Part shown: in pieces, positions 9,628 to 44,857 of the stretch
Layout of the letters: every line of letters starts with the position of its first letter
How positions within the stretch are numbered: the first letter of the stretch is position 1
Assembly: GCF_036274455.1 (NCBI RefSeq)
Contig: NZ_DASUFR010000076.1
Location: 6,290-70,289 of the forward strand
From: Nocardioides sp.
Lineage (GTDB): Bacteria > Actinomycetota > Actinomycetes > Propionibacteriales > Nocardioidaceae
DNA: 64,000 nt
Direction of reading: 5' to 3'
Position numbers and translations under genes: made by a program
Notes under the pieces: model-generated
Database searches by the model: none
The model's input: only the letters and a program-made list of their open reading frames with translations
Told to the model about the DNA's origin: nothing

Positions 9628-9719
9628 GGAGGGGTGCCGGAGTGGCCGATCGGAACCGCCTTGAAAGCGGTCGCTGGCAGAGATGTCAGCCGCGGGTTCG
9701 AATCCCGCCCCCTCTGCCA
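9628..9719 (+). tRNA. tRNA-Ser(TGA)
   Basis: GGAGGGG/CCCCTCT acceptor stem, ACCGC-cttgaaa-GCGGT anticodon arm, long variable arm, GGTTCGAATCC, encoded CCA. Confidence 0.96.
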
Positions 9720-10768: not shown

Positions 10769-10858
10769 GGAGGCGTCGCCTAGTCCGGTCTATGGCGCCC
10801 GCCTGCTAAGCGGGTTTGGGTCAACAGCCCATCGCGGGTTCAAATCCCGCCGCCTCCG
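10769..10858 (+). tRNA. tRNA-Ser(GCT)
   Basis: GGAGGCG/CGCCTCC acceptor stem, CCCGC-ctGCTaa-GCGGG anticodon arm, long variable arm, GGTTCAAATCC. Confidence 0.96.
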
Positions 10859-10879
10859 CAGAGGTCGTCACTGCGACCC

Positions 10880-10910
10880 GACGGCTCCCGGCCACGGTCC
10901 GGGAGCCGTC
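10880..10910 (+). terminator. Hairpin after tRNA-Ser(GCT)
   Basis: GACGGCTCCCGG / CCGGGAGCCGTC 12-bp perfect stem. Confidence 0.7.
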
Positions 10911-11310
10911 GCGCATTCCGGCTCAGGGTGGGAAAGTGGCGAAAAAGTTGTCACGTCGGGCGTGTCGGCGGCCGTACCGGGCCACCTGGACGCGTTGCTC
11001 GCGTCCGCGTGCCCGACGGAGCCGCTTCCGAGGGCCAGAAGGTGCAGTGGTCGCGACGGGACTTGCTGCAGCGCCCGCCCTCGATCCGGGCTCCTGGCGT
11101 CGTCACTGGGGTCCCAGCAGCCCCAGAAGCGCTCACGACCCCAAGGTGGGCATGACGCTACGGCGCGTGGGTCAAGTATCAACGAACTGCATGTTTTTGC
11201 AATGCAGATTTGTGAGGCAGCCGTGGACTCACGCCTTGCCTGACCCTGCAGACAGACTACCGGAGTGGGGCCGTTCCGTGGGCCCAGCAAGAGACCGAAG
11301 TGGGGAGACC

Positions 11311-11451
11311 ATGAAGAAGATCGTGCGCAGGATTGCCGTCGTCATCGGTGCGGTGGCAGTGTCCGCCGGCCTCCTTGGCGCCACGGCGGCGCCGTCGCAG
11401 GCAGCGGCGCACTCGGTCAGCCGCTCAGCGTTGGACACCCAGTGGGGCTGA
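11311..11451 (+). CDS. 46-aa secreted micropeptide 1 (..LDTQWG)
   Basis: GGGGAG RBS, then MKKIVRRIAVVIGAVAVSAGLLGATAAPSQAAAHSVSRSALDTQWG: basic n-region, hydrophobic h-region, Ala-rich cleavage site. Confidence 0.8.
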   Translation: MKKIVRRIAVVIGAVAVSAGLLGATAAPSQAAAHSVSRSALDTQWG

Positions 11452-11471
11452 CCTGACCGATACCCAGTCTT

Positions 11472-11535
11472 GAGACGGGGACCCGACTTTCCCCCCACTT
11501 GTCCGGTCCCAGCGCCTACCCCCCAGGCCCGTCTC
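11472..11535 (+). ncRNA. 6C-like structured RNA element (two C6-loop hairpins)
   Basis: Closing stem GAGACG/CGTCTC. Hairpin GGGACCcGAC-tttCCCCCCactt-GTCcGGTCCC and hairpin GCCT-aCCCCCC-AGGC. Rfam match not tested. Confidence 0.5.
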
Positions 11536-11540
11536 AACCA

Positions 11541-11576
11541 CACGAGGGCAGTGACCGCAGGGTCGCTGCCCTCGTG
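11541..11576 (+). terminator. Strong hairpin after the peptide 1 / 6C-like element
   Basis: CACGAGGGCAGTGACC-gcag-GGTCGCTGCCCTCGTG. Confidence 0.75.
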
Positions 11577-11643
11577 ACATTTCTCGGGTGCACACGGAAC
11601 GCCCGAGAAGGCGCCGGCGGGGTGAGCGGGACCCGGGCCTGCC

Positions 11644-12660
11644 TCACTCCGCCGGCTCGCCCTCGATCTCCTCCTGGCCCGAGATGCCCATCCGGCCCAT
11701 CGTGTAGCCGAGCTGGAAGCGCGTGTCCGCGTCGTAGTCGGCCTTCAGGTCGGCGACGTAGCCGGCGTAGGTGCGCGGGCTGACCCCCAGCCGCTTGGCG
11801 CTCACCGGGTCGCTGTGGCCCTCGATCAGCATCCGCATGGTCATCGCCCGCTGCTCGGCGGCGATGTCCTTCAGCAGCGACGTCTCGCGGTTGGTGAAGG
11901 GACGGCCGCGCTCCCAGGACCGCTCGAAGACGTCGACGAGGAACGCGACCACCGCGGGCTCGCGCACGATCACCGCCACACCGGGCTCGTCGCGGTTCGG
12001 GATCACCGCGACCCGGCGGTCGACCACGATCATCCGGTTGAAGAACTCATCGAGGGTGCGCACCTCGGCGCCGCGGGCGGTGACGGCCGCGACGTACTTG
12101 TGCGTCACCGAGCTGCGCCGGGCACTGTGCTGGTAGAGCGTGCGCATGGTGGCGCCGCGCTCGAGCAGCTCGATGTCGCGGAGCGCGGCTCGGGCCAGCT
12201 GGCGGGCGTTGCGGCCCGCCTCGGGCTGCGCGGTGAAGATCTCCTCCTCGCACTCGGCCACCAGCTGGTCGAGGACGCTGTTGATCAGGTCGAGGTTGCG
12301 CAGGTAGGTGAACGGGCCGCGCGCCGAGGACTGCGGGGCCCGTCGCCAGCTCTGGGCCAGGTTGGTGAAGGCGGAGTTCCACTGCGAGCTCTCGGAGAGC
12401 AGCTTGGCGGCCTCCTGGCTCAGCGGCGAGACGATCCGGCTCTGGACGCTGGTGGGGTCCTCGGGCTCCCACTGGTCCTGCTCGCGGTTGAAGGTGAGCA
12501 GCCCCATCTCGACCAGGAGGTCGAAGGCCTTGCGCAGCTCGCCGTCCTCGGCGATGCGGTAGTCGTTGGCCGGGATCCCGCCCCGCTGGCAGATCTCCTC
12601 ATAGAGCTTGGTGGCGTCGTCCTCGAACACGGCGCGCTCGTCGGGCCCGTAGCTCGGCAT
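11644..12660 (-). CDS. TrmB/LuxR-type transcriptional regulator (N-terminal wHTH, PLD-like middle domain, C-terminal LuxR HTH)
   Basis: MRTLYQHSAR..VRTLDEFFNRMIVVDRRVAVIP middle domain. MLIEGHSDPVSAKRLGVSPRTYAGYVADL..TRFQLG LuxR-like HTH. Confidence 0.85.
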   Translation of the reverse strand: MPSYGPDERAVFEDDATKLYEEICQRGGIPANDYRIAEDGELRKAFDLLVEMGLLTFNREQDQWEPEDPTSVQSRIVSPLSQEAAKLLSESSQWNSAFTNLAQSWRRAPQSSARGPFTYLRNLDLINSVLDQLVAECEEEIFTAQPEAGRNARQLARAALRDIELLERGATMRTLYQHSARRSSVTHKYVAAVTARGAEVRTLDEFFNRMIVVDRRVAVIPNRDEPGVAVIVREPAVVAFLVDVFERSWERGRPFTNRETSLLKDIAAEQRAMTMRMLIEGHSDPVSAKRLGVSPRTYAGYVADLKADYDADTRFQLGYTMGRMGISGQEEIEGEPAE

Positions 12661-14351: not shown

Positions 14352-14492
14352 ATGAGGAGCAAGTCCGTTCGCCTGACGGTCGCGGGCCTGGTTGCTGTCC
14401 TGAGCGTGCTCGGCCTGAGCCAGACCTCGGCAGACGCGAAGGTCATCAACCACCACCACGTGTCCAAGGTCGGCCCGTCCTGGTGCTGCTGA
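14352..14492 (+). CDS. 46-aa secreted micropeptide 2 (..GPSWCC)
   Basis: GAGGAG RBS, then MRSKSVRLTVAGLVAVLSVLGLSQTSADAKVINHHHVSKVGPSWCC: signal peptide with ADA cleavage site. Confidence 0.8.
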   Translation: MRSKSVRLTVAGLVAVLSVLGLSQTSADAKVINHHHVSKVGPSWCC

Positions 14493-14519
14493 CGTAACTA
14501 GCTGAACAAGGGGTCCGCA

Positions 14520-14543
14520 GGGCCGGGAGAGGGGACCCGGCCC
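14520..14543 (+). terminator. Hairpin after peptide 2
   Basis: GGGCCGGG-agagggga-CCCGGCCC. Confidence 0.6.
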
Positions 14544-14821
14544 CTTGAGGCATGCCCAAGTGGTATGGACCGAAGGAGACAGTTGCCAGAAGTTGCCGTA
14601 TGGTTGGCAACGCAGCCTCGCGGCGACCCTGTCTCCAAGCACAGGCCCCCCACCGCGCGCGAGACTTCGTCAGGAAATGGCCTGGCGCCGGGAGCCCCCC
14701 ACATGCACCCCCGGCGCCGGGCATCCTGGCAGCCAACAGCAGTCGGCACCGACCCCCAGGGGCCGGTGCCACTCTGCTTGTCTCAGGACCGTTCGGGCCC
14801 GGCTGGTGCCGGGCCCGGAGG

Positions 14822-16657
14822 TCACTCCTCGTCCAGGGCCTTGGCCACGCGCCGGTGCGCGTCCCAGATGACCTCGGGCAGCCGGTCGAACTGCTCGAGG
14901 TGCTTCTCTCGGAAGCCCATCTCCTGGCGCCAGCGGTCCACGTCGATGGTGAGGATCGCCTCGAGGTCCTCCTCGCTGATCTCCAGTCCGTCGAGGTTGA
15001 GCTCCTCGGCCTTCGGCACGATGCCGACCGGGGTCTGCCGGCCGGTGACCTCGCCGTTCTTGAGCTGCGCCAGCCACAGCAGCGCCCGCAGGTTCTCGCG
15101 GTAGCCCGGCCAGCGGAAGTGGCCGTCCTCGGGGTCGCGCTGGAACCAGTTGACGTGGGCGAAGATCGGCTGGTGCTCGGCGGCCCCGATCACGTCGAGC
15201 CAGTGCTGGGCGTAGTCGCCCTCGCCGTAGGACATGAACGGGCGGTTGGACATCGGGTCGTAGCGCAGTTGGCCGTCGACGCCCTCAGCGGCGAAGGTGG
15301 CCTCGGCGCCCAGGGTCAGGCCGTCGTAGACGCCCTCGGCCAGGTCGGTGATCGCGCGGATCAGCGGCTCGCGGTCGCGCGTGCGGCCGCCGAAGATGAC
15401 CGCGTCCACGTGGACCCCGCCGGGGTTCTCGTAGTCGACCGCGACGTTGGGGACGTTGGCCAGCGTCGTGGTGAACCGGCTGTTGGGGTGCGCCCAGGGG
15501 TCGTCCTTCTCCTCGTCCGTGCGGTCGGCGATGGGCAGGCCCTTCCAGTCCAGCCAGCCGGTGACGTCGGCCGGCGGCTCGGAGGTGCGGCCCTCCCACC
15601 AGACCTCCTGGGTGGTGGGGTTGTACGCGACGTTGGTGAAGATCGTGCCGGTGCCCGGGCGGATCGCGTCCAGCGCCGTGGGGTTGGTCAGCTCGTTGGT
15701 GTCCTTGGCCACGCCGAAGACGCCGTTCTCCGGGTTGAACGCCATCACCCGGCCGGACTCCTCGTCCACCCACAGCCAGGCGATGTCGTCGCCGTAGAAC
15801 TCGACGTGGTAGCGGTCGCCGAGGGCGTCGGGCGGCAGGGTCATCGCCAGGTTGGTCTTGCCCGAGGCGCTCGGGAAGCCGCCCGCGATGTGGTAGCGCC
15901 GGCCGGTCTGGTGATCGACGACCCCGAGCAGCATGAACTGCTCGCCGAGGAAGCCGTTCTTCCAGCCGTCGTACATGGCCTGGCGCAGGCCGTGGGCGAT
16001 CTTGCCGAGCAGGGCGTTGCCGCCGTACGACGAGCCGAAGTGGAGGATCGTGCGCTCGTCCGCGACGGTGATGAAGTAGCGCTTGTCGTCCGGCGTGCCC
16101 TGGCCGAGGTTGGGCAGGTCGCCGGTCACGTGCACCGCGCGCACGAAGGAGTTCTGGTCGGCGAGGTTGTCGACATGGTCCTTGCCGACCCGGGCCATGC
16201 GGATCACGTGCAGCACGACGGGGCGGCAGTCGGTGATCTGGACCCCCGCGGCGAACTGCTCCAGCGGCGATCCGGGCGGTGCCATCAGATAGGGGATGAC
16301 GTACATCGTCCTGCCGCGCGACTGGCCGGCGACCAGCGTGTTGTACAGCTCCTTCATCTCCGAGGCCGGGCGCCAGTTGTTGTAGACGCCCTTGTCGTTC
16401 GGGTCGCTGGTGGCGACGATCGTGCGCTCCTCGGAGCGCGCGGTGTCCTTGACGTAGGAGCGGGAGTAGTAGCGACCCTCGCCGGCCGGCAGGAGCTCGC
16501 CGGCGTCGAGGGACTCCTGCACGAGGCGGGCGTCGTCGGCGGTGCTGACGACCTCGATCCGGTCCGGCTGGGTGATCGCGGCCCAGTGGGCGACGTACTC
16601 GCGCACCTGCTGGTTCTTGATCCCAGCGTCGTCGAGGGCTGCTTCAACGTCCGTCAT
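14822..16657 (-). CDS. pckG: Phosphoenolpyruvate carboxykinase (GTP)
   Basis: DTARSEERT, FGSSYGGNALLGK, FPSASGKTNLAM P-loop, GDDIAW, NPENGVFGVA, HPNSRFT. Note Ser where many homologues have Cys (SACGKT). Confidence 0.95.
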   Translation of the reverse strand: MTDVEAALDDAGIKNQQVREYVAHWAAITQPDRIEVVSTADDARLVQESLDAGELLPAGEGRYYSRSYVKDTARSEERTIVATSDPNDKGVYNNWRPASEMKELYNTLVAGQSRGRTMYVIPYLMAPPGSPLEQFAAGVQITDCRPVVLHVIRMARVGKDHVDNLADQNSFVRAVHVTGDLPNLGQGTPDDKRYFITVADERTILHFGSSYGGNALLGKIAHGLRQAMYDGWKNGFLGEQFMLLGVVDHQTGRRYHIAGGFPSASGKTNLAMTLPPDALGDRYHVEFYGDDIAWLWVDEESGRVMAFNPENGVFGVAKDTNELTNPTALDAIRPGTGTIFTNVAYNPTTQEVWWEGRTSEPPADVTGWLDWKGLPIADRTDEEKDDPWAHPNSRFTTTLANVPNVAVDYENPGGVHVDAVIFGGRTRDREPLIRAITDLAEGVYDGLTLGAEATFAAEGVDGQLRYDPMSNRPFMSYGEGDYAQHWLDVIGAAEHQPIFAHVNWFQRDPEDGHFRWPGYRENLRALLWLAQLKNGEVTGRQTPVGIVPKAEELNLDGLEISEEDLEAILTIDVDRWRQEMGFREKHLEQFDRLPEVIWDAHRRVAKALDEE

Positions 16658-16959: not shown

Positions 16960-17032
16960 GCGCCCGTAGCTCAACGGATAGAGCATCTGACTACGGATCA
17001 GAAGGTTTGGGGTTCGAATCCCTACGGGCGCG
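16960..17032 (+). tRNA. tRNA-Arg(ACG)
   Basis: GCGCCCG/CGGGCGC acceptor stem, TCTGA-ctACGga-TCAGA anticodon arm, GGTTCGAATCC. Confidence 0.97.
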
Positions 17033-17049
17033 CAGGACTTGTCCCTCGA

Positions 17050-41029: not shown

Positions 41030-41515
41030 CCGGTGGCTGAGGTATGAGGCCGTTCACGGTCGAGCCTCGAAGCCTCCGCAGGGTGGGCGCCCGGGCAAGT
41101 CCCAGCGCCGGGTCGCCGGGCTTCGAGGCTCGGCGCTGGGGCGCCTCGCACCTCAGCCACCGTGGTGGGCCGTCGCTGGTCGAGCCTGTCGAGACCTCCG
41201 CAGGGTAGGCACCCGCGTAGGTCCCGGCCCCGGGTCACCGGGCTTCGAGGCTCGGCGCTGGGGCGCCTCGCACCTCAGCCACCGTGCTGGTCGAGCTTGT
41301 CGAGACCTCCGCAGGGCAGCACCCGCGTAGGTCCCGGCCCCGGGTCACCGGGCTTCGAGGCTCGGCGCTGGGGCGCCTCGCACCTCAGCCACCGTGGTGG
41401 GCCGCCGCTGGTCGAGCCTGTCGAGACCTCCGCAGGGTAGGCACCCGCTCGACCTCCGCTGGTCGAGCCTGTCGAGACCTCCGCAGCGATGGCACCCGCG
41501 CAAACCTCAGCCATC
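41030..41515. repeat. Mosaic REP/BIME-like repeat cluster
   Basis: GGGCTTCGAGGCTCGGCGCTGGGGCGCCTCGCACCTCAGCCACCG at 41118, 41240 and 41350, plus an inverted copy near 41030-41075. CTGGTCGAGC(C/T)TGTCGAGACCTCCGCAG occurs four times. Confidence 0.9.
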
Positions 41516-41587
41516 GTGGCAGGTTCGGTGCAGCAAGTCGCGCCGGAGCAGCCGTTTTGTCTTCCATGGCGTGGATACCGACGGCCC

Positions 41588-44500
41588 GTGGTGGAGTTCC
41601 TGGGGTGGCCGCTGGTGCGGCAGGTCACCGGGCGGGACCGCCTTGGCCGCGGCAGTGCGGTGCAGTCGCAGCGCAGCAGGACCCTCGAGCCGCGCACCGT
41701 CACCGCCGACCGGGTCGTCGACTCGGTCTGCCCCTTCTGCGCGGTCGGGTGCGCGCAGAAGGTCTTCGTCAAGGACGAGAAGGTCATCCAGATCGAGGGC
41801 AATCCGGCCAGCCCGATCTCGCGCGGGCGGCTGTGTCCGAAGGGAAGCGCCAGCAAGCAGCTGGTCACCTCGCAGACCCGCGTGACCAAGGTCCGCTACC
41901 GGCGGCCATACGGCACCGACTGGGAGGACCTCGACCTCGACACCGCGATGGACATGATCGCGGACCGGGTCATCAAGACCCGCAGGGACTACTGGCAGTG
42001 GGAGTCCGAGGGGCACCGCACCCGCCGGACCATGGGCATCGCCAGCCTCGGAGGAGCGACCCTCGACAACGAGGAGAACTACCTCATGAAGAAGCTCTAC
42101 ACGGCGATGGGTGCGATCCAGATCGAGAACCAGGCGCGGATATGACACTCCTCCACGGTCCCCGGTCTGGGGACCTCGTTCGGCCGTGGTGGCGCAACGA
42201 CCAACCTGATGGACCTGCAGAACGCTGACTGCATCCTGATCGAGGGCTCCAACATGGCCGAGGCCCACCCGGTGGGTTTCCAGTGGGTGGTGGAGGCCAA
42301 GCGACGCGGTGCCACGGTGATCCACGTCGACCCGCGCTTCACCCGGACCTCCGCGCTGGCCGACGTGCATGTCCCGATCCGGGCCGGGTCCGACATCGCC
42401 TGGCTCGGCGGGCTGGTCAACCACGTGCTCCAGCACGACCTCGACTTCCGCGAGTACGTCGTCGCCTACACCAATGCTGCCAACATCATCGACGGCGAGT
42501 TCAAGGACACCGAGGACCTCGACGGACTCTTCTCCGGCTTCGACCCCGAGACCGGCCACTACGACCCGCTCAGCTGGCACTACGAGCCTCCCGAGGAGCT
42601 GTCCGAGGACGACCGCCGGCACCTGCGCGAGGTCGAGGAGGACCGGGCCTCCGAGTCGTCGGGTGAGGGCCACAAGAAGTCGCACCAGGCGGCCCGGTCG
42701 GAGAGCCACGGCTCCGGAGGCGCCCCGGTGCTCTGGAAGGGGCGCCGCGACGAGACCCTCCAGCACCCGCGCTGCGTCTTCCAGCTCCTCAAGCGGCACT
42801 TCGCCCGCTACACCCCGGAGCTCGTGCAGGAGGTCTGCGGCATCGAGCCGGAACAGCTCCGCCGGGTGGCCGACGCGCTCACCGGCAACAGCGGCCGCGA
42901 GCGGACCACGGCCTTCTGCTACGCCGTCGGCTGGACCCACCACACCACCGGGGCACAGATGATCCGCGCTGCCGCGATCCTGCAGACACTGCTCGGCAAC
43001 ATCGGCCGGCCCGGTGGCGGCATCCTCGCCCTGCGCGGCCACGCCAGCATCCAGGGGTCGACCGACATCCCGACCCTGTTCAACATCCTCCCCGGCTACC
43101 TGCCGATGCCCCAGACGTCGCACCAGAGCCTCGACGAGTGGGTCGAGGCCGACGAGGGCGCGGCCGGCTTCTGGGGCAACGTGCGCCCCTACGCCGTGAG
43201 CCTGCTGAAGTCCTACTGGGGCGACGCGGCCACCGCCGGCAACGACTTCTGCTTCGACTACCTGCCCCGCGTCACCGGCGACCACTCGACCTACAGCACC
43301 GTGAAGTCCCAGATCGAGGGTGGCTGCAAGGGCTACTTCCTGGTCGGCGAGAACCCCGCCGTCGGGTCCGCCAACGGCAAGATGCAGCGGCTGGGGCTCG
43401 CCAACCTCGACTGGCTGGTCGTCCGCGACCTGCAGATGATCGAGTCCGCGACGTTCTGGCAGGACGGGCCCGAGATCGAGACTGGCGAGCTGGTCACGGA
43501 GGAGATCGGCACCGAGGTCTTCTTCCTGCCCGCCGCCTCGCACGTCGAGAAGGCCGGCTCCTTCACCCAGACCCAGCGGATGCTGCAGTGGCGCGACAAG
43601 GCGGTCGAGCCACCGGGCGACGCGCGCAGCGAGCTGTGGTTCTACGTCGAGCTGGGCAACCGGATCCGGGCCAGGCTGGCCGGATCGAGCGACGAGATGG
43701 ACCGCCCGCTGCTCGACCTCGCCTGGGACTACCCCTACGACGAGCAGGGCGAGCCGAGCGGTGAGCAGGTGCTCCGCGAGATCAACGGGACCGGGCCGGA
43801 CGGCGCGGCGTTGTCGGCGTACACCGATCTGAAGGCCGACGGTACGACGGCCTGCGGGTGCTGGATCTACTGCGGCGTCTACGCCGGCGAGCACAACCAC
43901 GCCCGGGACCGGACGCCGCACTGGGAGCAGGACGTGGTCGCCTCGGAATGGGGCTGGGTGTGGCCGGCGAACCGGCGGATCCTCTACAACCGCGCCTCGG
44001 CGGCGCCCGACGGGACGCCGTGGAGCGAGCGGAAGAAGTACGTGTGGTGGGACGCCGACGCCGACGACGGCAAGGGCCGCTGGGTCGGCCGCGACGTCCC
44101 GGACTTCATCCCCGACCGCGCGCCGGACTTCGTCCCCGAGCCCGGCGCCAACGGACCCGACGCGATCGGTGGCCAGGACCCGTTCATCATGCAGACCGAC
44201 GGCAAGGCGTGGCTCTTCGCGCCGGTGGGGTTGGCCGACGGGCCGATGCCGACGCACTACGAGCCGCCCGAGTCGCCGGTGCGCAACCCGCTCTACGGGC
44301 AGCAGAACAACCCGAGTCGGCGCAAGCTCGACCATCCCGTGAACGCGATCAACCCGAGCTGGAGCGAGGTCTTCCCCTATGTGTTCACCAGCTACCGGCT
44401 CACCGAGCACCACACCGCCGGCGCGATGAGCCGGACCCTGCCCTACCTCACCGAGCTGCAGCCGGAGCCGTTCTGCGAGGTGTCGCCCCGGCTGGCAGCG

Positions 44501-44857
44501 GAGAGAGGCCTCGAGCACCTCGGCTGGGCCACCATCGTCACCAACCGGACCGCGATCGAGGCCCGGGTGCTCGTCACCGACCGGCTCCGCTCGTTGCGGC
44601 TCGGGGACCGCTGGGTGGAGCAGGTGGGACTGCCCTACCACTGGGGCCGCAACGGCATCACCCAGGGCGACTCGCCCAACGACCTGGTCAACATCACCAT
44701 GGACCCCAACGTCTACATCCAGGACAAGGTCGGCACCTGCGACATCCGGCCCGGGCGCCGGCCGCGCGGCGCCGCGCTGATGGCGTACGTCGAGGGCTAC
44801 CGCCGCCGCTCGGGCATCGACCTCGCGCACCCCGAGGACGGAGGCGCGGACCGATGA
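41588..44857 (+). CDS. fdnG: Formate dehydrogenase alpha subunit, selenocysteine-containing (in-frame UGA at 42143-42145)
   Basis: CPFCAVGC..CPKG Fe-S motif. ENQARI-TGA-HSSTVPGLGTSFGRGG continues in frame into the 42209 ORF. TSYRLTEHH C-terminal motif. Start approximate. Confidence 0.88.
42157..42175 (+). promoter_or_regulatory. Bacterial SECIS hairpin
   Basis: GGTCCCC-GGTCT-GGGGACC starting 11 nt after the UGA. Loop resembles the E. coli fdhF/fdnG SECIS GGUC(U). Confidence 0.75.

Follow-up and report, generated by a model that had tools for sequence, protein, structure and literature searches.

The locus examined here raises a simple question: is the region behind a very short open reading frame of Nocardioides sp. 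a structured RNA with a role of its own and, if so, does it belong to the 6C RNAs of Actinobacteria? An earlier note on the window, by which we mean the whole stretch of 64,000 nucleotides that was analysed, had placed in the 3' UTR of a peptide gene a 6C-like RNA, a three-way junction with two hairpins each exposing six Cs, followed by a strong terminator hairpin. The 6C RNAs were defined by two hairpins with at least six Cs in each loop, by covarying stems and by their occurrence in Actinobacteria, and they lie 200-300 nt from chromosome-partitioning or pilus-assembly genes (PMC1950547). In S. coelicolor 6C is a distinct sRNA species (PMC2602773), in C. glutamicum its gene has a strong promoter of its own (PMC5014011), and its C-rich loops bind G-rich ribosome-binding sites directly, without a chaperone (PMC6486639). 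Little is known of the regulatory RNAs of the high-G+C Gram-positives, and the mechanism of action has been studied for only a few of them, 6C included.

The features of the locus are collected in Table 1. In the RNAfold prediction the region behind the ORF forms a closed three-way junction, in which an outer stem carries two hairpins of unequal length and each of the hairpin loops presents a run of Cs. Both the sequence and the fold thus confirm the junction drawn in the earlier note. Its distance of 20 nt from the stop codon is also correct when counted to position 11472; the folded outer stem begins 18 nt past the TGA. The core folds at -28.9 kcal/mol (z = -5.0; RNAfold), and none of 200 shuffled sequences was as stable. 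Core and terminator-like hairpin together reach -65.3 kcal/mol (z = -6.9), again with no shuffle as stable. A pair of C6 runs at this spacing is common by chance, at least one being found in 73 of 100 shuffles of the window. The significance of the element therefore rests on its structure and its conservation.

Table 1. Features of the locus and of other parts of the window, with strand and basis or remark
Feature	Position	Strand	Basis or remark
tRNA-Ser(TGA)	9628-9719		flanks the locus
tRNA-Ser(GCT)	10769-10859		flanks the locus
21-bp palindrome CTGCAT-N9-ATGCAG, upstream of peptide gene	11187-11207	+	sequence; candidate operator or promoter element
5'-UTR hairpin, GGGCC / GGCCC stem, loop GUUCCGUG	11268-11285	+	conservation and UTR fold
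Ribosome-binding region AAGUGGGGAG of peptide gene	11298-11307	+	proposed loop-1 partner
Peptide ORF, 46 codons + stop	11311-11451	+	Sec-type signal peptide (ending …APSQA) and mature part of ~15 aa ending DTQWG
Stop codon TGA of peptide ORF	11449-11451	+	read directly
Three-way-junction RNA with two C loops	11470-11537	+	folds, covariation, R1 model (134 bits), metatranscriptome contigs
Outer stem, 8 bp	11470-11477/11530-11537	+	RNAfold
Hairpin 1, 6 + 3 bp around a C·C mismatch	11478-11483/11505-11510 and 11485-11487/11501-11503	+	
Loop of hairpin 1, UUUCCCCCCACUU, 13 nt	11488-11500	+	
Hairpin 2, 4 bp	11514-11517/11525-11528	+	
Loop of hairpin 2, ACCCCCC, 7 nt	11518-11524	+	
C runs of exactly six	11491-11496 and 11519-11524	+	both inside predicted loops
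G+C-rich terminator-like hairpin, 16 bp (11541-11576), then tail ACAUUUCUC	11541-11585	+	fold and covariation
G+C-rich hairpin CCGGCGGGGUGAG…CUCACUCCGCCGG	11612-11658		overlaps stop codon of regulator gene
LuxR-type HTH regulator, 338 aa, convergent	11644-12660	-	weak HTH_23 / FixJ-type C-terminal HTH matches; synteny anchor
XRE-HTH + TPR regulator, 488 aa	12754-14220	-	divergent from second peptide gene
Second small secreted-peptide gene	14352-14492		product ends …VGPSWCC
3' region of second peptide gene, ~330 nt	14500-14830	+	highly structured, z = -4.0
Single-stranded CCCCCCAC	14645-14655		upstream of the long hairpin
Long hairpin CAGGAAAUGGCCUGGCGCCGGG-AGCCCCCCACAUGCAC-CCCGGCGCCGGGCAUCCUG	14672-14731		near-invariant; loop again with CCCCCCAC
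tRNA-Arg(ACG)	16960-17033		flanks the locus
Molybdopterin oxidoreductase, formate-dehydrogenase-like	41489-44857	+	Fe4S4, Molybdopterin and Molydop_binding domains
In-frame TGA	42143-42145		joins two ORFs
Hairpin directly after the in-frame TGA	42150-42175		Rfam SECIS_3 below threshold (33.9 vs 63 bits)

The comparison with related genomes is decisive; 80 Nocardioides genome loci were fetched with the convergent regulator gene as the anchor. A search by regular expression recovered the element from 44 of these 80 loci, with position and strand unchanged. The covariance model R1, for which 33 diverse copies were used, detected it in 59 of the 80 as well as in the window, and in 82 metagenome contigs (E <= 1e-6, one per contig). 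Each locus has one copy, on the strand of the ORF only; the R1 matches on the opposite strand correspond to the near-palindromic terminator alone. In 142 of 142 members, the window included, the junction lies between the stop codon and the terminator-like hairpin, and no copy turned up in any other genomic setting.

The stems of the element covary. In the 33-sequence alignment 93.8% of the cells are standard pairs and 15 of the 35 pairs have changed on both sides. The covariation score is 0.211, compared with a shuffle mean of 0.106, and none of 500 shuffles reached either this score or the number of compensatory pairs. Control alignments in which the partners were slid by 1-3 columns were 30-42% paired, and RNAalifold agrees with the covariation result. 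The outer stem has two-sided changes of the type GC↔CG and hairpin 1 has those of the types AU↔GC and CG↔GC; eight pairs of the terminator-like hairpin have also changed on both sides. Hairpin 2 contributes little covariation, two of its four pairs being invariant and one covarying. Across 60 copies the outer stem changes from GAGAC/GUCUC to GAGCC/GGCUC and to GAGUC/GACUC. About 33 G-U pairs, counted by hand in the per-pair table, would become A-C mismatches if the opposite strand were read; they fit the + strand only.

The metagenome contigs were also scanned with a pattern that fixed the stems and left the loops free. R1 confirms 82 of its 97 matches as true members; the remaining 15 are long, lack C runs and are due to chance. 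Five or more consecutive Cs are present in both loops in 75 of the 82 members and in one loop in 7, and no member is without such a run. The loop runs span five to eight Cs, and loop 1 nearly always reads C5-7 followed by AC. Some divergent members lack the C run in one loop, and one genome locus (L029) lacks it in both, with the junction retained. This suggests that the fold may matter independently of the loops.

The element is also found in RNA. At least 14 metatranscriptome runs from different studies, mostly of soil, hold the sequence of the junction and the terminator-like hairpin, and the exact sequence of the window is present in soil metagenome runs. Contigs from the RNA libraries span the junction and the terminator and reach the ends of the upstream peptide ORFs of related strains, which read …DSSWGR*, …WGR* and …KKDSSWPW*. 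The element is thus transcribed, and it shares one RNA molecule with the ORF. Depth and ends of these contigs reflect differences between species and so are uninformative on a separate 3' fragment. A promoter directly upstream of the junction was considered and rejected: this stretch is the variable C-terminal part of the coding region plus a linker, its 10-40 nt vary between loci, and no conserved -10/-35 or other promoter was found between the ORF and the junction. The earlier note had named a lack of compensatory changes and a lack of transcription as the findings that would count against it; both points were examined, and fifteen compensatory pairs and the metatranscriptome contigs were found. 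The junction is almost certainly a functional structured RNA, and the element, which is transcribed and lies in the 3' UTR of the peptide mRNA, represents a real genus-level RNA family that had not been described before, with 142 examples.

The hairpin that begins 3 nt after the junction had been taken for a strong terminator, and its stem is conserved. Fifteen pairs of the 16-bp stem are 97% paired, and 8 of them show compensatory changes. The tail, however, has only three Us, and a simple promoter and terminator scan of positions 10800-12000 found nothing; the terminator was thus assessed by folding and covariation instead. A similar hairpin is also present in some loci without the junction, for example L035. 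The regulator gene runs toward the hairpin from the opposite strand, and the second G+C-rich hairpin, which overlaps the stop codon of that gene (Table 1), may be the regulator gene's own terminator; Rfam gave only chance-level miRNA matches there.

The gene in front of the junction is a genuine peptide gene, as the earlier note supposed: its ORF is conserved, and RNA contigs join it to the element. Its product is MKKIVRRIAVVIGAVAVSAGLLGATAAPSQA followed by AAHSVSRSALDTQWG, the signal peptide and the mature part, respectively. In every locus examined the ORF is kept, with the signal peptide and a D(S/T)(S/Q)W(G/P) motif. In the common layout M-x-x-x-R-(K/R) precedes a hydrophobic core and a cleavage site of the AxA type; the mature part behind them is short (10-30 aa) and variable and bears D(S/T)(S/Q/G)W(G/P), in many cases as SWGCGGYC, which has two Cys residues. 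Among the metagenome members, an ORF with the same SW signature ends 3-45 nt upstream of the element in 77 of 82, the 77 being those with readable upstream sequence, and the same linkage holds in the genome loci. The motif is repeated in tandem in some peptides, three times as KKDSSWGY in L014 and twice in L019, L067, L107 and L155, as in the precursors of processed signalling peptides. No Pfam or NCBIfam family matched either of the two peptides of the window, and the database homologues, all from Nocardioides, are named 'hypothetical protein' only. Judged from its sequence features, the host ORF is a member of an unannotated family of small secreted peptides.

In all 80 genome loci the peptide gene is convergent with the conserved LuxR-type regulator gene. 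Homologues of this regulator in Nocardioides are 77-94% identical, and some are named LuxR family; the protein of the window is 86% identical to that of N. halotolerans. The palindrome upstream of the peptide gene keeps its core TGCA-N-TGCAATGCA in 28 of 28 aligned loci, with or without the RNA, and is, by its sequence, a candidate operator for the adjoining regulator. The simple promoter scan called no sigma-70-type promoter. Directly upstream of the ribosome-binding site, nearly all loci keep a 5'-UTR hairpin GGGCC-AUUCCGUG-GGCCC, conserved as GGGCCAUUCCGUGGGCCC with wobble and compensatory variants and predicted to be paired in the UTR fold. The near neighbours of the RNA are a tRNA-Ser gene, a PH-domain protein, the LuxR-type regulator, the XRE-TPR regulator and PEP carboxykinase, while serS, a HAD hydrolase, a dehydrogenase and a nitrilase-type gene lie farther away. 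Three tRNA genes flank the locus (Table 1), and the tRNA-Ser(GCT) upstream of the peptide gene lies within the conserved synteny of related genomes.

The peptide gene is kept without the junction in 21 loci. In a neighbour-joining tree of the regulator these loci form two blocks nested among the carriers, which suggests that they arose by loss of the junction; gain of the junction may be the alternative. Two of them, L026 and L038, have a plain hairpin, GAGACGGGC-UAGUC-GCCCGUCUC, at the junction's place, about 60 nt past the peptide stop codon. This hairpin may be an ancestral or a collapsed state of the element. It has a repeated GAGACGGGCU and lies in the position that the junction's outer stem would occupy.

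A probable function is suggested by the loops. Loop 1 (CCCCCCAC) is complementary to the ribosome-binding site of the peptide gene itself (AAGUGGGG). The predicted duplex has 8 contiguous pairs (AAGUGGGG:CCCCACUU) and an energy of -16.1 kcal/mol, the best among the 42 predicted start regions in the window. The next-best energy, -13.3 kcal/mol, is that of a set which includes the site of the adjoining regulator (GAGGGGUGG), and a scan of the window for other targets of the loops gave scattered G-rich sites only. In the minimum-energy fold of the whole mRNA, the ribosome-binding region pairs with loop 1 and with the 3' strand of hairpin 1. An extended pairing of 13 bp between this region and the same strand was rejected as idiosyncratic to the window, since relatives were found on inspection to be without it.

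The comparison of loci with and without the RNA is consistent with this pairing in part. The ribosome-binding site of the peptide gene contains GGG in 42 of 54 loci with the RNA and in 4 of 20 without it. Carrier sites are of the GGUGGGG, AAGUGGGG or GGAGGG type and non-carrier sites are GGUGUG or GUUGG; metagenome members have mostly GGUGG(G/A). The mean duplex energy with loop 1 is -11.7 kcal/mol in the first group and -6.1 kcal/mol in the second (Mann-Whitney p = 3e-7, a value that ignores phylogeny). The co-occurrence is in fact largely phylogenetic: the loci without the RNA form only about two blocks in the regulator tree, so that it reflects about two independent events. The pattern also has exceptions: the RNA occurs together with GGUGUG in L043, the clade of L060, L069 and L075 combines C loops with GGAGA, and L067 has GGGG and no RNA. 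Across loci no clear covariation was seen between variants of loop 1 and variants of the ribosome-binding site, and the loop changes in L003 and L008 (CAC to CAA or CAU) have no matching change in the site. The possibility that the regulator's site also tracks the RNA was rejected; it is G-rich in both groups (mean -12.9 against -10.4 kcal/mol, with uncertain start codons). Since many ribosome-binding sites in these genomes are rich in G, the complementarity has little specificity.

On these grounds, we favour the proposal that the C-rich loops act as anti-Shine-Dalgarno sequences on G-rich ribosome-binding sites, as do those of 6C and of RNAIII. The best candidate target would be the peptide mRNA's own site (GUGGGG), with pairing either in cis, between the 3' UTR and the 5' UTR of one molecule, or in trans, by a 3' fragment that is stable. 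Such pairing would feed back on translation or stability of the peptide mRNA, and the G-rich site of the LuxR-type regulator and other G-run sites might be additional targets. To this proposal, which draws on computed duplexes and on analogy, we would give an even chance of being correct.

Other explanations of the junction have to be weighed against it. The frequency of C6-N-C6 spacings in shuffled sequence would be in keeping with a chance structure in G+C-rich intergenic DNA; this is refuted by 141 independent homologues with compensatory changes that the shuffles do not reproduce and by the observed transcription, and its probability is negligible. The junction could also be the Nocardioides orthologue of 6C, that is, a true and diverged member of RF01066 that has moved behind a peptide gene. 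It shares with the known 6C RNAs (mycobacterial B11 / ncRv13660c, S. coelicolor scr3558, C. glutamicum cgb_03605) the actinobacterial host, two loops of about six Cs and the covarying stems, all of which belong to the original verbal definition of 6C (PMC1950547). In addition, 6C is the only Rfam family that aligns both loops, and no canonical 6C was found in the 64-kb window (RF01066, no match at E <= 1). The match itself is weak, however. The search with the Rfam 6C model, which had been proposed as a check, gave 19.9 bits and E = 3.2 in a 551-nt search, below the gathering score of 47; six further members are also below the gathering threshold. At that threshold Rfam found no family in the window and none in 20 related loci, among them 6 carriers of the element, and no other Rfam family matches the junction by gathering or E-value threshold. 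The alignment to 6C deletes nearly all of the model's 13-bp second stem. Whereas 6C consists of two long tandem hairpins of about 12 and about 13 bp with no closing stem, the junction is a closed three-way structure with a closing stem of 7-8 bp and a second hairpin of 3-4 bp. Its setting is different as well: no chromosome-partition or pilus-assembly genes were found within about 8 kb, and in place of a free-standing gene with its own promoter, as in C. glutamicum (PMC5014011), the junction is co-transcribed with the peptide ORF that ends 3-45 nt before it. Unlike 6C, it is known so far from Nocardioides-type genomes only. We therefore regard orthology as decidedly unlikely, and the junction is treated as a new family that resembles 6C in design; the two may have a distant common ancestry. 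The description of the element as 6C-like thus survives as the best available mechanistic analogy (PMC6486639), with C loops likely acting in both RNAs on G-rich ribosome-binding sites without a chaperone (PMC6486639, PMC1950547), and it does not extend to membership in the 6C family.

It could further be argued that the loops have no pairing partner and that the junction is a cis-acting element for stability or termination at the 3' end, in which junction and terminator would shield the short mRNA from 3'-to-5' exonucleases or insulate it from the convergent regulator gene. The constant placement between stop codon and terminator of the same ORF agrees with this, as do the survival of the junction architecture after loss of one or both C runs and the plain hairpin that occupies its place in L026 and L038; stem-loops are also known to stabilise 6C-type RNAs (PMC5014011). 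Such an element would require stems, however, and not specific loop sequences, while the loops are among the most conserved positions, with their C runs and the AC of loop 1 kept, and the junction-less loci manage with little or no such structure. This explanation is unlikely, in our judgement. A role as a platform for a protein, without base-pairing, appears very improbable. The protein might be one that binds C-rich RNA, Rho, or one that exports or localises the peptide mRNA. Two identical short loop motifs in a fixed geometry are typical of the sites of dimeric RNA-binding proteins, the tie to one gene family is strict, and Rho prefers C-rich RNA. Against it, the loci examined show no gene for a candidate protein that comes and goes with the element, the regulator and peptide genes being present either way; the Cs are embedded in a G+C-rich structure with an intrinsic-type terminator behind it, whereas sites of Rho loading are unstructured; and complementarity to ribosome-binding sites is the simpler explanation.

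The pairing of C loops with ribosome-binding sites has parallels outside the Actinobacteria. RNAIII of S. aureus, the dual-function effector of agr quorum sensing (RF00503), codes for a small exported peptide, and the C-rich loops of its downstream hairpins target G-rich ribosome-binding sites (PMC2837412). The Nocardioides transcript likewise codes for a peptide and carries C-rich loops downstream, with binding to ribosome-binding sites here only predicted, and both loci have an adjoining gene for a transcription regulator. With about 115 nt, the structured 3' domain is much smaller than RNAIII with its 514 nt. The Nocardioides product carries a Sec signal peptide, and Rfam gave no match to RF00503 at the thresholds used. 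By analogy, the locus might be an actinobacterial counterpart of the agr/RNAIII logic, with a secreted signalling peptide, its mature part ending in D(S/T)SWG, on an mRNA whose 3' domain regulates; the two C loops would then repress or activate their own message, the adjoining regulator and other mRNAs with G-run sites. We consider this wider reading doubtful. If it were true, a single molecule would link the peptide signal with regulation by RNA.

Enterobacterial 3'-UTR-derived sRNAs such as CpxQ, SdhX and DapZ (review cited in PMC5014011) share the terminator of the parent mRNA and have their module between stop codon and intrinsic terminator, as here. With the junction in this position, any stable 3' fragment would carry the seed loops. 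The seed lies in hairpin loops in the junction and in the single-stranded 5' end in sRNAs of the CpxQ, SdhX and DapZ type, and the host here belongs to the high-G+C Gram-positives, in which RNAs of this kind have been reported to pair without a chaperone (PMC6486639). In Firmicutes, RsaE/RoxS and further sRNAs with a UCCC motif also have unpaired C-rich anti-Shine-Dalgarno seeds (PMC2837412); they belong to other phyla and other sequence families and are independent genes without a peptide ORF.

As a second family with the two-C-loop device, structurally distinct from 6C, the junction would be the first such RNA tied obligatorily to a coding gene, that of a small peptide which is secreted and may serve as a signal. 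The 142 examples and their strong covariation already allow a family description in the style of Rfam. The proposed contact between a 3'-UTR loop and a ribosome-binding site is a simple hypothesis that can be tested in soil bacteria that are culturable and non-pathogenic. The element also draws attention to an unannotated peptide family beside a conserved LuxR-type regulator.

Other features of the window were observed as well. A second small secreted-peptide gene is divergent from the XRE-TPR regulator gene, and its relatives end in WCC, CCGS or CCR. The arrangement is reminiscent of the RRNPP-type peptide-sensing cassettes (weak AimR-family match, E = 0.013). The 3' region of this gene (Table 1) is again highly structured, and the structure is conserved in 9 close relatives. 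No Rfam family matched this region, and R1 gave only 14.7 bits. If the wider RNAIII-like reading were true, this second peptide gene with another CCCCCCAC loop behind it would make it a recurring design. Elsewhere in the window, the gene for a molybdopterin oxidoreductase is made of two ORFs joined by an in-frame TGA with a hairpin directly behind it, and this TGA is probably a selenocysteine codon.
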